A stretch of DNA of 64,000 bases from Candidatus Multivoradales bacterium. GTDB lineage: Bacteria > Acidobacteriota > Thermoanaerobaculia > Multivoradales > J023. The notes under the pieces are model-generated. The model was not told where the DNA came from and ran no database searches. It saw only the letters and a program-made list of their open reading frames with translations. The position numbers and the translations under genes were made by a program. Location of the stretch: assembly GCA_965248925.1 (NCBI GenBank), contig CBDFLE010000005.1:607135-671134 (forward strand), written 5' to 3'. This document shows positions 5,832-27,855 of this stretch, in pieces (the first letter of the stretch is position 1; the number at the start of each line of letters is the position of its first letter).

Positions 5832-6314
5832 CTAGAGTATTTTCGGGGCGACCTTTTCAAGGATAGTCCGCCGCGTCACCATGCCGACGAAGCGTCCGTC
5901 CTCAAGCACAGGCAAGGTCTTGCGCCGCCGCTCGACGATTAGCACCACCGCTCGGGTCAGCGAATCGTCCGGCGCTACCGAGTCGATGTTCTCGCTCATC
6001 AATTCTTTGACCTGACGCCCGGCCAAGCCGTCGAGGCGCTCGGTGAGGAATCCCTTGTGCAGCATCGCCGCCAACTTCTGATCGAGATCAACATAGAGAG
6101 GCACAACGCTGCGCAAGATGTCGTAGATGCCCACCAGGCCGACCAGCCGTCGGTCCTTGTCGAGGACCGCTGCGGTAGCCTGGCGGCTCGCCAGCAGCCG
6201 GGGTAGCAGGCTGGCGAAAGTCTCCTCCGGGGTGGTGGTCAGGGGATTCTCGAGCATGGTGTCGCGGATCAGCATGGGGGTGGTCTCCGGCTCTTGCAAC
6301 AGCTCTTTTGACAT
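5832..6314 (-). CDS. CBS-pair domain protein
   Basis: 160 aa with two tandem CBS motifs ('GLVGIYDILRSV', 'RFVGMVTRRTILEKV'). No other domain. Confidence 0.7.
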   Translation of the reverse strand: MSKELLQEPETTPMLIRDTMLENPLTTTPEETFASLLPRLLASRQATAAVLDKDRRLVGLVGIYDILRSVVPLYVDLDQKLAAMLHKGFLTERLDGLAGRQVKELMSENIDSVAPDDSLTRAVVLIVERRRKTLPVLEDGRFVGMVTRRTILEKVAPKIL

Positions 6315-6492
6315 CTATATCGCGCTGCGCACGGTCAGCCCGCCGCAGCGCGGCAGAGAATACGCTATTCTGTGCTGCGGCAACACCCCCTTGGCGAAAC
6401 GATGCCGAGGGCTGACTTTTGTTGACCACCCTCAAGGGGCATTGCTACGATCCGCTTTCGTGACCCCGATCCCAATCCGACTTGGAGAGTTC

Positions 6493-7638
6493 ATGCATAT
6501 CGAATTGAGCGAAGAGCAAGAGCTGCTGCGCCAGGAAGTGCGGCGATTCGCTGATGAAGTGATCAAACCCAAAGCCAAGGAAATCGACGAGAAGGGCAGT
6601 TTCCCCCGCGATTCCTACGATCTAGCCGGCGAGATGGGGCTGGCGGGTGTTTTTGTTCCCGAGCAGCACGGTGGCGCCGGCATGGACACCTTGTCCTACT
6701 GCCTGATGATCGAGGAAATCAGTCGGGCATGCGCTTCGACCGGAGTGATCCTGTCGGTCAATAACTCGCTAGTCTGCGATCCGTTGCTGAAATTCGGCAG
6801 CGACGAGCAGAAGGAGCGTTTCCTCAAGCCCTTGGCCGCGGGCGAGAAGTTGGGTTGCTTCGCCTTGACTGAGCCCGGCGCCGGTTCAGACGCCGCCGCT
6901 CTGCGCACCACGGCGGTACGTGATGGCGACGACTACTTGCTCAATGGCAACAAGATCTTCATCACCAACGGCACTGACGCTGATCTGGCGCTGGTCTTCG
7001 CCACCGTCGACCCGGCACTCAAATACAAAGGCATCACCGCTTTCATCGTCGCCGCCGACGCTCCGGGATATTCCCACGGCGCGCATGAGTACAAGCTCGG
7101 GGTCAATGCGTCCGGCACCACTGAGCTGGCATTCCAAGATCTGCGAGTACCTGCGTCACAGCGAGTTGGCGAAGAGGGTGACGGTTTCAGAATTGCCATG
7201 GCTACCCTCGATGGCGGTCGGGTCGGAATCGCCGCTCAGGCGGTGGGGATCGCCCAGGCCGCCTTCGAAGAGGCGCTGGCCTACTCACAAGTGCGTGAAC
7301 AATTTGGCACCCCGATTTCTAGTTTCCAGGCTATCCAGCACTACCTGGCCGATATGTCGACCGAACTCGACGCCGCCCGCCTGCTGACCTGGAAAGCGGC
7401 TTGGGCGAAGGAACATCAGAAGCGCTACACCCTGGAAGCCGCCCAGGCCAAGCTCTTCTCCTCGCAGATGGCGCAGAAGGTGACCAATTTGGCGTTGCAG
7501 ATCCACGGCGGCTACGGCTATATCCGCGAGTACAACATGGAGCGCTACTTCCGTGATGCCCGGATTACCGAGATCTACGAAGGTACCAGCGAGATCCAGA
7601 AAATAGTGATCGCCGACTGGGTGTTGAACAAGAGCTAA
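6493..7638 (+). CDS. Acyl-CoA dehydrogenase (short/medium-chain type)
   Basis: 382 aa from [13 protein letters not shown], the canonical ACAD N-terminus. '[14 protein letters not shown]' FAD/substrate motif; C-terminal 'IYEGTSEIQ'. The ORF-track start at 6127 is an upstream in-frame extension lacking ACAD features. Confidence 0.9.
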
Positions 7639-7653
7639 GCCGAGGTAACGAAC

Positions 7654-8805
7654 ATGTCCGAGGTCTTGATGGACTTTGCCCTGAGCGAAGATCAAACACT
7701 GATTCGTGACGAGGTCCGTCGCTTCGCCGAAGAGCGCATCTTGCCCGGCGTGGCGGAGCGCGACCGCAATCACCAGTTCCCGGCCGAGATCATCGCTGAA
7801 CTCGGTGAGCTCGGCTTTCTCGGCATGACGGTGGACGAAGAATACGGCGGCGCCGGATTCGACAGTCTCACCTATCTGCTGGCGGTCGAAGAGTTGGCCC
7901 GGATTTGTCCGGCAACGGCGGTCACCATGACAGTTACTAACTCGGTCTGCTGTTGGCCCATCGGCCGTTTTGGCAGCGAAGAACTCAAGCGGCGGGTTTT
8001 GCCCCAGCTAGCTGGCGAAGGCGCCCTGGGCGGCTTTGGTCTAACCGAGCCTGGCGCCGGCTCCGACGCTGGTGCAATGCGCACCACGGCCAAAAAAGAC
8101 GGCGAGCATTGGCTGCTCGACGGCGAGAAGGCATGGATTACCAATGCCGGAGAAGCCAAATACTTGGTGGTGTTGGCCAAGACTAACCCCGAAGCTGGTA
8201 AGCGCGGGATCACCGCATTCGTCTTGCCCACCGACACCCCTGGTTTCGAGGTGGGCACGGCGGAAGAAAAGGTTGGTCTGAAAGCGTCCCGCACCGCGCC
8301 GATCTACTTCAGCGGTTGCCGGGTGAGTGATGCCAATCGTTTGGGCGCAGAAGGGCAGGGCTTCAAGATCGCCCTCTCGACCCTCGATCATTCGCGTTTG
8401 GGTATTGCCGCCCAGTCGATCGGCATGCATCAGCGGGCGCTAGAACTGGCTACCTCTTACGCCAAGGATCGGCAGCAGTTCGGCCAGCCGATCAGCAACT
8501 TCCAGACCATTCAGTTCAAGCTTGCTGAGATGGCCACCGAGTTGGCGGCGGCTCGCGCTCTGACCTACCATGCGGCAATCGAAGAGCATTCCGCTATTGC
8601 CGGCCGGCTGGCCTCCCAGGCCAAAGTCTACGCCAGCGAGGCGGCCAACCGGGCCTGTTGGGAAGCGGTGCAGATTCACGGCGGCAATGGTTTTTGCGAA
8701 GACTACGAGGTTGCTCGCCTGTTTCGCGATGTGCGAGTGACGACCATCTACGAGGGCACCAGCGAAATGCAACGTCTGGTGATCGCGCGGCACTTGCTGC
8801 GCTGA
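7654..8805 (+). CDS. Acyl-CoA dehydrogenase (second paralogue)
   Basis: 383 aa. '[14 protein letters not shown]', 'QIHGGNGFCEDYEVARLFRD', 'IYEGTSEMQ'. 16 nt downstream of the first ACAD, same strand. Confidence 0.9.
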   Translation: MSEVLMDFALSEDQTLIRDEVRRFAEERILPGVAERDRNHQFPAEIIAELGELGFLGMTVDEEYGGAGFDSLTYLLAVEELARICPATAVTMTVTNSVCCWPIGRFGSEELKRRVLPQLAGEGALGGFGLTEPGAGSDAGAMRTTAKKDGEHWLLDGEKAWITNAGEAKYLVVLAKTNPEAGKRGITAFVLPTDTPGFEVGTAEEKVGLKASRTAPIYFSGCRVSDANRLGAEGQGFKIALSTLDHSRLGIAAQSIGMHQRALELATSYAKDRQQFGQPISNFQTIQFKLAEMATELAAARALTYHAAIEEHSAIAGRLASQAKVYASEAANRACWEAVQIHGGNGFCEDYEVARLFRDVRVTTIYEGTSEMQRLVIARHLLR

Positions 8806-8827: not shown

Positions 8828-8849
8828 GCAAGGAGAATGCTCTCCTTGC
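8828..8849 (+). terminator. Hairpin (9-bp stem GCAAGGAGA / TCTCCTTGC, 4-nt loop) directly after the ACAD stop; possible terminator or RNA-stability element
   Basis: Perfect inverted repeat 23 nt after the stop at 8805. No strong U-tract follows, so it may be a weak or Rho-assisted terminator. Confidence 0.3.
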
Positions 8850-8860
8850 AGCGAAGAAAT

Positions 8861-8881
8861 ATCTGTCTCATAAAGACAGAT
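8861..8881 (+). promoter_or_regulatory. Perfect 8-5-8 palindrome ATCTGTCT-cataa-AGACAGAT; candidate operator upstream of the Cys-rich peptide gene
   Basis: Seen directly in the sequence, 120 bp upstream of the peptide start codon. The spacing and symmetry are typical of a dimeric transcription-factor site. Confidence 0.35.
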
Positions 8882-9000
8882 TGCTAATAAGCTATTGTTG
8901 CCCTCAGACTATGTACTGCTGGATGATTGGCGGTGGGTGGCAGGAGTGTATTCTGCTTTCCCCGGCATAGTGCAGTGCAAGAAAATCAAGGAGAGGAAGA

Positions 9001-9192
9001 ATGCGAAAAGCGATCATCGGAGCTTGTTTGGTCTTCGGCCTGTCATTTGCTTTCGGAATGACCACCGCCGAACCGGCGAAAGCTGCCGGCTTCTGCACCT
9101 ATCGTTGTGTTTGCAGTGTGCCGTACAAATGTTGCGGCAGCGCCTGCAAGGTTACCAACGAGATTCAGTGCCCGCAGGTATTTGACTGCTGA
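9001..9192 (+). CDS. Secreted cysteine-rich mini-protein (predicted signal peptide + 35-aa mature region with 8 Cys)
   Basis: Strong RBS AAGGAGAGG 6 nt before the ATG. N-terminus MRKAIIGACLVFGLSFAFGMTTAEPAKA fits a Sec signal peptide with an AKA|AG cleavage site. Mature AGFCTYRCVCSVPYKCCGSACKVTNEIQCPQVFDC has 8 Cys (4 potential disulfides), including a CC pair. Followed by its own hairpin terminator. Confidence 0.6.
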   Translation: MRKAIIGACLVFGLSFAFGMTTAEPAKAAGFCTYRCVCSVPYKCCGSACKVTNEIQCPQVFDC

Positions 9193-9210
9193 CAGGGCCT
9201 TGAACTTGGG

Positions 9211-9234
9211 AGGAACGGCCATTGCGCCGTTCCT
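9211..9234 (+). terminator. Stem-loop (9-bp stem AGGAACGGC / GCCGTTCCT, loop cattgc) followed by a T-rich stretch; attenuator or terminator between the peptide gene and the TlpA-like gene
   Basis: Perfect inverted repeat 19 nt after the peptide stop, followed by TCTCTTCG. Fits a partial terminator that gives differential expression of the upstream small gene. Confidence 0.5.
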
Positions 9235-9273
9235 TCTCTTCGAACCAGAGAGATTCAACGAGGAGCCCGGCCG

Positions 9274-9861
9274 ATGAGTCGCACATCCCCCCTCAAGGTC
9301 GCCGCCACCGTCCTAGCGATGGTTGCGGTGGCGGTCCTAGGTCTTGCCCTGGGCAAGCGAATGGGACAGCGCCAGATTGCCCCGGAGAGCGCCACCTTCC
9401 AGTTGCCAGAGGTCATCTTGAAGCCCGGTGCCCAGCTGCCGGAGGTAGCGCTGAGCGCCCCTGCCGGTGAACAGCTCAGCAGCTTGCAGTTGCTAGCAGA
9501 GTCCGGTGCAGTGGTGCTGTTCCTGGACCTCGACTGTTCCCCCTGCACCGAGGCCGTGGGCCGCTGGCAAGTGGCTCTCGACGAGGCGACCTTGGGTGAC
9601 GGCCAATGGCTGGAGCAGGTGGATCCCCGCTTGCCGTTGATCGGCATTACCCGCGACGCGATCGACCGCATTGCCCCCTATCGTGCTCTGCACGGCTTGA
9701 CTTTTCCCATTTATCACGATGCTGGCGCACGCCTGCGCGACGATTACTTGATTCAGTCTTTCCCCTTCTACGTGGTGGCCGCTCGCGACGGCAAGGTGCT
9801 CGCCAACGGCGTCGACCAGGTGCTCGCCGCAGACCAGCTAGAGCGGCTGCTGATTCCCTGA
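9274..9861 (+). CDS. Membrane-anchored thioredoxin-fold thiol:disulfide oxidoreductase (TlpA/ResA-like, CxxC = CSPC)
   Basis: N-terminal TM anchor (VAATVLAMVAVAVLGLAL). 'VVLFLDLDCSPCTEA' redox motif in thioredoxin-like spacing. 'FPFYVVAARDGKV' resembles the C-terminal beta-strand region of TlpA-like proteins. Confidence 0.7.
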   Translation: MSRTSPLKVAATVLAMVAVAVLGLALGKRMGQRQIAPESATFQLPEVILKPGAQLPEVALSAPAGEQLSSLQLLAESGAVVLFLDLDCSPCTEAVGRWQVALDEATLGDGQWLEQVDPRLPLIGITRDAIDRIAPYRALHGLTFPIYHDAGARLRDDYLIQSFPFYVVAARDGKVLANGVDQVLAADQLERLLIP

Positions 9862-11474: not shown

Positions 11475-11550
11475 GGGCCGTTAGCTCAGTTGGTAGAGCA
11501 GCGGACTTTTAATCCGCGGGTCATAGGTTCGATCCCTATACGGCCTACCA
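11475..11550 (+). tRNA. tRNA-Lys (anticodon TTT)
   Basis: GGGCCGT acceptor stem (G1:U72 wobble), D-arm AGCTCAGTTGGTAGAGC, anticodon loop cTTTTaa, T-arm GGTTCGATCC, 3' CCA encoded. Cloverleaf folds by hand. Confidence 0.88.
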
Positions 11551-12010: not shown

Positions 12011-13378
12011 TGGTCAAGAGTTGTGTATGGAGGATCAGGCGGCGATCCTGTCTTCTCGGATTCCATCGACAAATCTGACACCTCGAATGACATCGGCAAG
12101 TAGCTTGTAGCCTCGGAGTCGATGCCATCGTTTCTCGGCGCTCTGGCAGAGCTTGAAGACCATTGTCAGCATCGTTTGACGCGACAGGCAGCCGCGTGTT
12201 CTCGCAGTTCTCAGCCGCACGGTTGCGAAGGTCGACTCGATGGGGTTGGTGGTGCGCAGGTGGGTCCAGTGTTCGGCCGGAAAATCATAGAACGCGAGTA
12301 GCTCGGTGCGGTCCTTTTCCAGGCAGGTAGCCACCTTCGGGTACTTGGCCTCGTAGATGCGCAAGAAGCCGTCAAAAGCCTCCTCGGCGTTCTCGCGGGA
12401 CTCTGCCATCCAGATCTCATGTAGGGCTTGCTTGGCCTTCGGCTGCACCGACTTGGGCAAGTAGTTCAGGATGTTCCCCGTCTTGTGTACCCAGCAGCGT
12501 TGCTTCTTCGTGTTGCCCCAGACCTGAGCGAGGGCCTTCCAGAAGCCGAGTGCTCCATCGCCAATGGCCAGCTCGGGTTCAGTAGTGAGACCGTGAGTTT
12601 CGAGGCCGCGCAGCATCTCCAGCCATGAGGCTTCGCTCTCGCGATAGCCATCCTCGACGGCGATCAGTTCCTTCTTGCCGTCTTCCGTGGCCCCGATGAG
12701 CACCAACAGGCACAGCTTGGCGTCTTCGAGACGCGCCTTGCAGTGGATGGCATCGGCCCACACGTAGACGTAGCGCCTGCCGGTGAGGTCGCGGCCACGC
12801 CACGCTCCGTAGTCCTTCATCCAGACCTTTTTCAAGCGGCTGATAGTCGGAGCCGAGAGCCCGGGGGCATCCGGACCTAGAAGAGCACCGAGGGCTTCTG
12901 AGAAGTCACCGGTGGAGCTCCCGCGCAGGTAGCGCCAGGGCAGCAGCTCGCCGACACTCTTCGCGCGCCGCAGATAGGGCGGTACGATCTTTGAGTGGAA
13001 CTGAATGCCTTCGCCCTCGATGGCCGCCTGGTCGCGGACGCGAGGGACTCGTACCGGCACACCGCCAAGGCCCATCTGGATCTCGCGCTCAGGTAGGTAG
13101 CCGTTGCGCACCAGGCGTTGGTGCCCAGCCTCGTTGCGCTCCTGCTGATACTCGGTGAGGAAAGAGCCGACCTCGGCTTCGATGGCCTCTGCGAGCAGCT
13201 GCCGGGCGCCAGCGCGAAGAACCTCCGTCAGCGCGTCGCGAGTCTCTTGCGGACGACGCATCGGAACTACTGTATTCTCGGCCACGGCGTATCTCCTCGT
13301 CGTTGAGGGTGAATCGGACTGTGAAAGTCGATTCAGGATACGCCACCTTTTTTTCTCCTCATACACAACTTCCGACCA
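12011..13378 (-). mobile_element. IS256-family insertion sequence (about 1.37 kb) with imperfect terminal inverted repeats
   Basis: Terminal IRs GTCAAGAGTTGTGTATGGAGGA (12013-12034) and TCCTCATACACAACTTCCGAC (13353-13373) are reverse complements apart from 1-2 mismatches or indels. A single transposase ORF lies between them. Sits 460 bp from tRNA-Lys. Confidence 0.8.
12035..13261 (-). CDS. IS256-family (Mutator-like) transposase
   Basis: 409 aa from MRRPQETRDALTEVLRAGARQLLAEAIEAEVGSFL, the typical IS256 Tnp N-terminus. DDE region 'YVYVWADAIH...', 'CWVHKTGNILNY'. The ORF-track start at 13387 is an upstream extension. Confidence 0.85.
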   Translation of the reverse strand: MRRPQETRDALTEVLRAGARQLLAEAIEAEVGSFLTEYQQERNEAGHQRLVRNGYLPEREIQMGLGGVPVRVPRVRDQAAIEGEGIQFHSKIVPPYLRRAKSVGELLPWRYLRGSSTGDFSEALGALLGPDAPGLSAPTISRLKKVWMKDYGAWRGRDLTGRRYVYVWADAIHCKARLEDAKLCLLVLIGATEDGKKELIAVEDGYRESEASWLEMLRGLETHGLTTEPELAIGDGALGFWKALAQVWGNTKKQRCWVHKTGNILNYLPKSVQPKAKQALHEIWMAESRENAEEAFDGFLRIYEAKYPKVATCLEKDRTELLAFYDFPAEHWTHLRTTNPIESTFATVRLRTARTRGCLSRQTMLTMVFKLCQSAEKRWHRLRGYKLLADVIRGVRFVDGIREDRIAA

Positions 13379-13458
13379 TAGCTCCACCAGATGTCGATCA
13401 CCTGGAAGCCGAAGAAGAGCATCGCCTGCGAAGCTAGAGCCTTGAGCAGGCGACCGAT

Positions 13459-22934: not shown

Positions 22935-23741
22935 ATGTTCAACTCGTCTGTGTTCAGTCGTTTCTTACCGGCCGCCCTGGCGCTGACGGCGGTGGGCATT
23001 GTTGGGGTCAGGAGCGCCGCCGCAGGCGATCCGCCAGCCGCACCCGTGCCGATTGTTTTGGAGCTCTTCACTTCGCAGGGTTGTTCGAGCTGTCCGCCCG
23101 CGGATGCCTTGCTGAGTAGACTTGGCGAAGTCGACGAAAAGGGATTCCTGCTGATTCCTCTGTCCTACCATGTCGACTATTGGAACCGGCTGGGCTGGGC
23201 CGATCCTTTTTCCTCCGCGGAGTGGTCGCAGCGCCAGGCAGCCTATGCCCGAGTCCTGCCTGGAGGGCGTCTTTACACCCCGCAGTTGGTGATTAACGGT
23301 CGCCATCACGAAGTAGGCTCAAAGGGCAACCAGGTGGAAAAGCTCCTCGCTGAAGAGGGTCAGCGGCAACCCGCTGCGGAGTTGCAGGTAGAAGCCGAGC
23401 GGATGGCCGGGGGGCGACTAAAAATAGGGGTCGAAGGGCGGCTGCGCTCAGCGGTCGAAGGCTCCCTAACGCTAAGGGTGGCCCTGTGGGAGAGTGGCCT
23501 ATCCACCGCAGTCGAGCGGGGTGAGAACGCCCGTCGTAATCTCGCCAATGACTATGTCGTGCGCCGTTTGAAGAGTCGTCCGGTAGGGCTTAAGAAAGCC
23601 GGCGAAGGTCTTTCCGAGACGCTGACCCTAAGCCTAGATCCCCGCTGGCGCAGCGAGGACCTAGGGGTAGCGGTATTCCTGCAGCGGCGCGACACCTTGG
23701 CGGTGGTGGGTGCGGCGGTGAGTAGAGTGCCCGCTAGCTAG
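22935..23741 (+). CDS. DUF1223-family thioredoxin-like secreted protein
   Basis: Signal peptide. 'LELFTSQGCSSCPPADALL' and 'YHVDYWNRLGWADPFS' are the two signature blocks of DUF1223. Confidence 0.7.
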   Translation: MFNSSVFSRFLPAALALTAVGIVGVRSAAAGDPPAAPVPIVLELFTSQGCSSCPPADALLSRLGEVDEKGFLLIPLSYHVDYWNRLGWADPFSSAEWSQRQAAYARVLPGGRLYTPQLVINGRHHEVGSKGNQVEKLLAEEGQRQPAAELQVEAERMAGGRLKIGVEGRLRSAVEGSLTLRVALWESGLSTAVERGENARRNLANDYVVRRLKSRPVGLKKAGEGLSETLTLSLDPRWRSEDLGVAVFLQRRDTLAVVGAAVSRVPAS

Positions 23742-27820: not shown

Positions 27821-27855
27821 GAGTGAATATCTCTTCAATTGAGAGATATTCACTC
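27821..27855. promoter_or_regulatory. 35-bp near-perfect palindrome (14-bp arms GAGTGAATATCTCT / AGAGATATTCACTC around t-CAATTG) in an AT-rich island, with a second 8-bp-arm inverted repeat (GTGATTTT-cttgcc-AAAATCAC) 40 bp downstream
   Basis: Read directly. Local GC is about 40-45% against about 67% for the window. Lies in the divergent intergenic region between the sigma-54 EBP gene and the XRE-family HTH gene. An AGTGA motif recurs four times within 90 bp. Confidence 0.55.

Follow-up and report, generated by a model that had tools for sequence, protein, structure and literature searches.

Why a gene for a small, cysteine-rich exported peptide should stand directly ahead of a gene for a membrane-anchored thioredoxin-like protein is the question raised by a locus at positions 8828–9861 of a 64-kb stretch of DNA from Candidatus Multivoradales bacterium (Acidobacteriota; contig CBDFLE010000005.1), which is called the window below. 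The locus was read, with moderate confidence, as coding for a miniprotein with four disulfides, exported by Sec, and for a thiol-disulfide oxidoreductase that is anchored in the membrane and dedicated to it, the two being expressed unequally across an intercistronic hairpin. The first gene (9001–9192) would give a precursor exported by Sec, and its mature part of 35 amino acids (aa) would form a compact β-sheet miniprotein with four disulfides. The second gene (9274–9861) would give a membrane-anchored, extracytoplasmic CxxC enzyme working on the cysteines of the miniprotein, most likely as an oxidase or isomerase dedicated to steering the eight cysteines into one native pairing and so catalysing or proof-reading its oxidative folding.

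The open reading frame (ORF) at 9001–9192 on the forward strand encoded a 63-aa product, MRKAIIGACLVFGLSFAFGMTTAEPAKAAGFCTYRCVCSVPYKCCGSACKVTNEIQCPQVFDC. A Shine-Dalgarno sequence, AAGGAG (8988–8993, forward strand), was located 7 nucleotides (nt) ahead of the ATG, which bore out the good ribosome-binding site described in a first-pass annotation of the same DNA, and GGAGG-type sites likewise preceded the peptide genes at other loci. The N-terminus had the Sec-type layout that the annotation had also proposed, composed of MRK, a hydrophobic core and AKA followed by AG, and a signal peptide of 28 aa (9001–9084) was predicted from these features. An A-x-A sequence directly ahead of [AG]-x-C, where cleavage would occur, was recurrent in the family alignment. 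The predicted mature miniprotein (9085–9189) contained eight cysteines separated by 3, 1, 5, 0, 3, 7, and 5 residues, exactly the spacing that had been annotated (C-x3-C-x-C-x5-CC-x3-C-x7-C-x5-C). A lipoprotein reading of the sequence IGAC, with Cys9 as the modified residue, was ruled out, because Cys9 was missing from nearly all homologs.

The ORF is a real gene under selection. An orthologous region was found on a metagenome contig (L003), where a pair of acyl-CoA dehydrogenase genes was followed by the small ORF, the thioredoxin-like gene, and one more gene that was matched to purA by position alone. When the two small ORFs were compared, 5 of 63 residues were changed, all of them conservatively, and 12 synonymous differences were counted against 5 non-synonymous ones. 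The ratio of non-synonymous to synonymous substitution rates (dN/dS) was 0.095 for the small ORF, 0.12 for its mature part, and 0.19 for the neighbouring enzyme. The first-pass annotation had named, as evidence that would count against it, an ortholog lacking the ORF or cysteine positions free of purifying selection; the ORF was kept in L003, and all eight cysteines were kept in 118 of 119 distinct mature sequences among the matches listed. A sigma-70 promoter scan of the window locus gave no match. A TTGAC(A)-like box was observed about 50–70 nt upstream of the peptide start at seven other loci (L001, L006, L007, L015, L018, L020, and L023), and the window and L003 showed no clear match to it. 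These boxes suggest that the peptide genes may have promoters of their own.

The peptide belongs to a sizeable family, of which no description was found in the literature or the family databases searched. A search with the single peptide returned one relative, a first scan of GTDB none, and an exhaustive HMMER search with a two-sequence profile six further cluster representatives; the family was opened up through the neighbours of the enzyme and a profile search with twelve members. The twelve-member profile matched 223 proteins at E ≤ 1, and at least 120 protein clusters were among the matches listed, all at E ≤ 2e-20 and 62–72 aa in length. The 120 members listed were annotated as hypothetical or unnamed and carried no Pfam domain. 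The commonest cysteine spacing in the family was 3, 1, 5, 0, 7, 9, and 5; that of the window had the shortest loops and was unique among the 119 distinct mature sequences. Conservation extended beyond the cysteines, to an aromatic residue after Cys1, [KR] before Cys2, an S/N-x-P-[YH]-[KR] segment before the CC pair, a Lys after Cys6, and an invariant Gln two residues past Cys7. The members had a mean net charge of +1.75 and consisted of about 20% Cys and about 8% aromatic residues, with conserved Tyr/Trp/Phe positions and no conserved His or Met. Named sources were Thermoanaerobaculaceae, Thermoanaerobaculia, Polarisedimenticolaceae, other Acidobacteriota, Krumholzibacteriia, and metagenome-assembled genomes of Latescibacteria. 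Pfam and NCBIfam scans of 68 members gave signal-peptide noise and no family model, a PDB sequence profile search with the family gave no match, a literature search that included the motif strings returned nothing on it, and no relatives were found in viral contigs. The two-sequence profile also retrieved a 739-aa repeat protein (P0012) with five copies of a unit containing KCICPAPYKQVGNIC, a partial match (E 1e-5) to the profile's N-terminal half that may reflect convergence or a distantly related module.

The mature peptide was modelled with AlphaFold2 (AF2) from an alignment of 59 sequences, and the model (predicted local distance difference test score, pLDDT, 75.6) was a three-stranded antiparallel sheet (residues 4–9, 12–17, and 20–23) with no helix. 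If the turns are of two residues, the register would set C4 opposite C17 and C16 opposite C21, and C8 and C10 would then be left to pin the C-terminal C29 and C35. A PDB fold search with the model gave no match. The first-pass annotation had likened the peptide to knottins, defensins and conotoxins, and this likeness proved to be one of cysteine count. Like bacterial cis-defensins (xanthusin and others), knottins, WAP and hevein domains, and conotoxins, the family members are small, rich in cysteines and made with a signal peptide, and their cysteine order, C-C-C-CC-C-C-C, is that of conotoxin framework XIII. However, the defensin pattern C-x(2,18)-C-x3-C-x(2,12)-C-x(4,17)-C-x-C (PMC11561630) and the patterns of WAP, hevein, beta-defensin, and lipid-transfer (LTP) proteins matched 0 of 59 members. 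These five patterns were rejected on that count, and the cis-defensin class also by the lack of a helix in the model.

The downstream gene (9274–9861, forward strand) was preceded by the Shine-Dalgarno sequence GAGGAG (9260–9265, forward strand), 8 nt ahead of the start, and encoded a 195-aa, N-terminally anchored CxxC protein of the ResA/TlpA/Etrx/SdbA type, in line with the membrane-anchored thioredoxin-fold gene of the annotation. Its putative membrane anchor was an N-terminal hydrophobic helix (residues 6–32, core 9–27; 9289–9369), with a Kyte-Doolittle mean of 2.49 over the hydrophobic 19-mer. The annotated active-site motif, CSPC, was located at residues 88–91 (9535–9546). Both cysteines of the motif, Trp98, and Pro164 (codon 9763–9765), at the cis-proline position of the thioredoxin fold, were invariant in 10 aligned partners, and the dipeptide between the cysteines varied (SP, GS, PP, EG, DG, or AP). 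The residue before the first active-site cysteine was Asp, Glu, or Asn in all 10, with no Trp, giving the motif LD[LP][DEN]-C-x-x-C. The window protein scored below the family cut-offs, with 23.8 bits against 26 for Pfam AhpC-TSA and 17.6 against 170 for the ResA model NF002854, and AhpC-TSA/Redoxin hits were recorded in several partners at other loci.

When the enzyme family profile was compared with solved structures, it matched TlpA-like thioredoxins, ResA, StoA, Etrx, and some BCP peroxiredoxins. The AF2 model of the enzyme (pLDDT 72.5) was composed of the N-terminal helix (residues 6–32) and a thioredoxin fold with the CxxC motif at the N-terminus of helix 1, and its top PDB matches in Foldseek were Etrx2, ResA, DsbE, SdbA, StoA, and TlpA (E 1e-9 to 1e-7). 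The modelled enzyme thus has a thioredoxin fold. By analogy with these relatives, its catalytic domain would face the periplasm. The enzyme contained an 18-residue insertion, shared with L003 only, for which the model had low confidence (residues 108–119).

The annotation had proposed looking for the pair in other genomes, where it was found in 11 independent lineages. From the enzyme side, 3 of 3 non-self homologs (84, 40, and 34% identity) had a peptide gene immediately upstream, encoding 63–70 aa with eight cysteines. From the peptide side, the enzyme gene lay downstream on the same strand, across a gap of 43–93 nt, in 11 of 20 independent lineages (window/L003, L004, L006, L007–L010, L012, L016, L018, L021, L022, L024, and L025), spanning at least three phyla. 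The flanking genes were of housekeeping kinds and varied lineage by lineage, as in acyl-CoA dehydrogenase/purA, RadC/TyrRS, Ni-SOD, GDSL lipase/permease, CarboxypepD_reg/T2SSE, and STAS/GreA, and there was no recurrent third gene. Pairing was seen in 5 of 5 peptide subclades, a distribution suggesting that the pair is ancestral and was subsequently lost or relocated in places. Furthermore, the divergences of the two genes were correlated pairwise over 12 paired loci (Mantel r = 0.66, p = 0.0002). Pairwise identity at these loci was 46–91% for the peptide and 28–85% for the enzyme, the peptide being the more conserved partner, and the mature peptides showed neither hypervariable loops nor tandem paralogs across phyla. 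The peptide and the enzyme are a conserved two-gene unit of uncultured soil bacteria in which pairing is not universal.

The gene contexts narrowed the range of functions. No ccm or res genes and no CcdA/DsbD were found beside the pair in the 11 lineages that have it or within the annotated portion of the window, and no sco or msr partners near the pair. A cytochrome c maturation role of the ccm/ResA kind, which the annotation had named as a finding that would speak against its reading, was ruled out by these contexts. Among the loci examined, no recurrent ATP-binding cassette (ABC) exporter, outer-membrane route, immunity protein, regulator, or protease was found, no radical-SAM, LanM, YcaO, or similar leader-dependent modifying enzyme of the kind that defines a RiPP cluster (the N-terminus being a predicted Sec signal and not a leader), and no recurrent metal-handling gene near the peptide loci. 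A GDSL-type lipase gene on the minus strand was observed beside or near the pair in three cases (L007 3691–4920, L024 4826–5941, and L025 6735–8063), perhaps as a remnant of synteny inside a single phylum, perhaps by loose association.

The two genes of the window were separated by a hairpin (9211–9234, forward strand; arms 9211–9219 and 9226–9234) of 9 perfect base pairs (bp) and a 6-nt loop, with a folding energy of −15.2 kcal/mol. The stem began at the 19th nt past the peptide stop, as had been annotated, and none of 500 dinucleotide shuffles of the window spacer attained 9 bp. The tail, TCTCTTCGAA, had been called T-rich; with 4 T in 10 nt it was weak. In L003 the stem was unchanged and extended, and the loop was different. 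The hairpins of other spacers were judged by folding energy against dinucleotide shuffles, since G-U pairs and bulges escape counts of perfect stems. A strong stem-loop was present in 12 of 12 paired spacers, mostly of 9–17 bp and −15 to −36 kcal/mol and starting 10–28 nt past the peptide stop, and all 12 spacers folded better than their shuffles (p 0.003–0.073). At least six of these hairpins were unrelated in sequence. A hairpin also ended most unpaired peptide genes. In one Polarisedimenticolaceae locus (L004, 670–712), a 12-bp intergenic hairpin stopped 2 nt short of the enzyme start codon and held the sole GGAGG in its 5′ arm, which suggests both translational and transcriptional damping of the enzyme there.

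Upstream of the peptide gene, a second perfect 9-bp hairpin with a 4-nt loop (GCAAGGAGA atgc TCTCCTTGC; 8828–8849, forward strand) was located 23 nt past the stop of the nearer of two tandem acyl-CoA dehydrogenase genes (6127–7638 and 7654–8805), an arrangement kept in L003, where this hairpin was present with one mismatch. It probably marks the 3′ end of the acyl-CoA dehydrogenase transcript, insulating the peptide gene from upstream. Perfect hairpins of at least 9 bp numbered only nine in the window, and two of them (8828–8849 and 9211–9234) bracketed the peptide gene. The gene enclosed by these hairpins has its own ribosome-binding site, and the downstream hairpin probably terminates or stabilises most transcripts, which would give a high ratio of peptide to enzyme. 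Between the upstream hairpin and the gene, the 8-5-8 palindrome of the annotation (ATCTGTCT cataa AGACAGAT; 8861–8881) was found as described, ending 120 nt ahead of the ATG. One of its arms was mismatched in L003, and only on the minus strand did the scan rate it terminator-like. The palindrome may serve as an operator or form a minor hairpin. An origin of the hairpin and the palindrome as repeated elements was ruled out, both being unique in the window.

Several observations weigh against an oxidative folding pair with unequal expression. The terminator scan gave no call on the intercistronic hairpin of the window, and no paired hairpin had a U-tract (tails of 0–4 T per 10 nt), so that none combined a GC-rich stem with a U-tract as in a canonical intrinsic terminator. 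Of the attenuator that had been annotated, the conserved strong hairpin therefore stood and the terminating action is putative; the hairpins may act by partial termination or by stabilising a 3′ end after processing. The peptide model was of moderate confidence only. Basic residues were present on both sides of the anchor helix in homologs, and the charge rule is consequently compatible with either orientation of the enzyme. Characterised ResA/TlpA-type proteins are mostly reductants, not oxidants, and no DsbB/VKOR or CcdA/DsbD partner was found in the module. In addition, the peptide gene lacked an adjacent enzyme gene in 9 of 20 lineages (L001, L002, L011/L014, L015, L017, L019, L020, L023, and L026), where the enzyme is either dispensable or encoded elsewhere in the genome. 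The layout of a dedicated peptide-maturation locus, as first annotated, held as a pair recurring in 11 lineages; the pairing was not obligatory and came with no exporter or immunity gene, which speaks against a bacteriocin locus of the classical kind.

Known systems resemble the pair in principle. PedC, BlpG, and BdbA/B are dedicated oxidoreductases for disulfide-containing bacteriocins (PMC4919988), and in PedC with pediocin PA-1, BlpG(St), and BdbA/BdbB with sublancin 168, as here, a small exported cysteine-containing peptide is encoded beside a thioredoxin-fold CxxC protein that aids native disulfides (PMC4919988). Those loci come from Firmicutes; their peptides have two disulfides and either a double-glycine leader or glycosylation, and an ABC transporter and an immunity gene are encoded with them. 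In the present pair the putative disulfides number four, the signal is of the Sec type, the hosts are presumably diderm, and neither a transporter nor an immunity gene is present. Neither partner is related in sequence to the PedC/BlpG/Bdb systems, and because no exporter or immunity gene was found, the pair does not belong to the class II bacteriocin loci. The enzyme shares with ResA, CcmG (DsbE), TlpA, StoA, and Etrx the fold, the N-terminal anchor, the CxxC motif opening helix 1, and the conserved proline loop, but the window protein has no Trp before the first cysteine and falls below the Pfam and NCBIfam cut-offs, and its conserved partner is a miniprotein, with no ccm, res, sco, or msr partners nearby. 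The structural relative SdbA of Streptococcus gordonii (5um7) oxidises secreted proteins, and bacteriocin production requires it (PMC5112981). SdbA differs in being a general oxidase of a Gram-positive host with no dedicated small substrate encoded next door. Reductants (ResA, TlpA) and oxidants (SdbA, PMC5112981) alike occur in this fold class, and homology is therefore consistent with either catalytic direction.

An opposite direction of catalysis appeared rather unlikely. Here the enzyme would be a reductant holding all eight cysteines in the free thiol state, and the peptide would serve in the periplasm either to bind metals such as Cu(I), Zn, or Cd through its thiols or as a sacrificial redox buffer. 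TlpA, which keeps ScoI and CoxB reduced for copper loading, provides the analogy, the closest solved relatives of the enzyme (ResA, StoA, Etrx, and TlpA) are mostly reductants, CxC and CC motifs occur in metallothioneins too, and a peptide more conserved than its enzyme fits a physiological and not an antagonistic role. Metallothioneins, however, are rich in Cys and poor in aromatic residues, and have no regular secondary structure without metal. In the present family, 20% Cys was combined with 8% aromatics at conserved Tyr/Trp/Phe positions, conserved Pro, Lys, and Gln positions, and a regular three-stranded sheet predicted with cross-strand cysteine pairs (pLDDT 75.6). The family also lacked conserved His or Met and a recurrent metal-handling neighbour, and the oxidising compartment reached after export favours disulfides. 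Were the thioredoxin domain instead cytoplasmic, holding the cysteine-rich precursor reduced and export-competent before Sec translocation, the basic residues past the anchor, which in most homologs equal or outnumber those of the N-terminal flank, would be accounted for. This is highly improbable: the enzymes that resemble the protein in fold work outside the cytoplasm and share its kind of N-terminal anchor, and in a cytoplasm that is already reducing a dedicated enzyme seems needless.

The peptide could also be a Sec-dependent antimicrobial or toxin, for which the enzyme would be a maturation factor or a means of self-protection that inactivates the peptide at the producer membrane. A hairpin past the structural gene is the usual layout of peptide antibiotic operons. 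The peptide combines small size, export and richness in disulfides with a mildly cationic character (mean net charge +1.75). Dedicated oxidoreductases occur in bacteriocin loci (PMC4919988). We nevertheless regard a toxin as unlikely, for no conserved ABC exporter, outer-membrane route, immunity gene, or regulator was found at the loci, viral contigs lacked the peptide, and mature sequences were 46–91% identical across phyla with no hypervariable loops or tandem paralogs; moreover, in producers assumed to be diderm, Sec would take the peptide to the periplasm only. With no exporter or immunity gene beside the pair, hosts presumed diderm, and a peptide conserved across phyla, a role of the miniprotein in the envelope of its own producer is more probable than release as a toxin. 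Mere co-inheritance or co-regulation of the two neighbours, for example as envelope-stress genes with no enzyme-substrate relation, would agree with the unpaired half of the lineages, and the link between peptide and enzyme comes from gene context. It is nonetheless improbable, given same-strand adjacency at 43–93 nt in 11 lineages of at least three phyla amid changing neighbours, a peptide gene beside every homolog found from the enzyme side, and the chemically specific match of a cysteine-rich exported peptide with a thiol-disulfide enzyme. The explanation that we favour remains a miniprotein with a dedicated folding catalyst, probably acting in the envelope.

Elsewhere in the window, Rfam matched two tRNAs only, across both the locus and the whole 64 kb. 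About 0.5 kb past the tRNA-Lys(UUU) gene (11475–11550), and just downstream of purA, a Mutator/IS256-family transposase gene (12035–13387) lay on the minus strand; this site may be an insertion hotspot. The strongest palindrome of the window (27821–27855) was AT-rich, with 14 perfect bp and a 7-nt loop (GAGTGAATATCTCT tcaattg AGAGATATTCACTC). A DUF1223 protein gene (22935–23741; Pfam E 1e-56) was located 13 kb from the locus and showed no link to the pair.

The principle of a cysteine-containing peptide with a private oxidoreductase is known, and no description of this peptide family, its predicted fold, the enzyme branch, the system of these hosts, or the minimal hairpin-separated layout was found in the sources searched. 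Disulfide-rich miniproteins are valued as stable drug and probe scaffolds; to our knowledge, nearly all known examples are eukaryotic, and bacterial ones are few. A bolder and tentative reading, which we put forward as a possibility, is that the peptides form a new structural class of bacterial four-disulfide miniproteins with an unsolved fold, and that they have co-evolved with a folding catalyst of their own from a time before the divergence of several soil phyla. Such a peptide would be a stable and bioactive scaffold directed at a conserved target in the envelope, as an inhibitor or as an antimicrobial. If this were true, the locus would be a natural two-gene cassette for producing knotted disulfide-rich peptides in Gram-negative hosts. 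The family itself is widespread and strongly conserved in bacterial phyla with almost no cultured members, and its at least 120 protein clusters without a Pfam or NCBIfam model mark a gap in the family databases. Accompanied in many genomes by a thiol-disulfide enzyme of its own, it offers a testable two-gene system for how eight cysteines are brought to a single pairing in the bacterial envelope and, if the relation of enzyme and substrate is true, would give its substrate to one branch of the large TlpA/ResA-like family, most of which lacks an assigned one.

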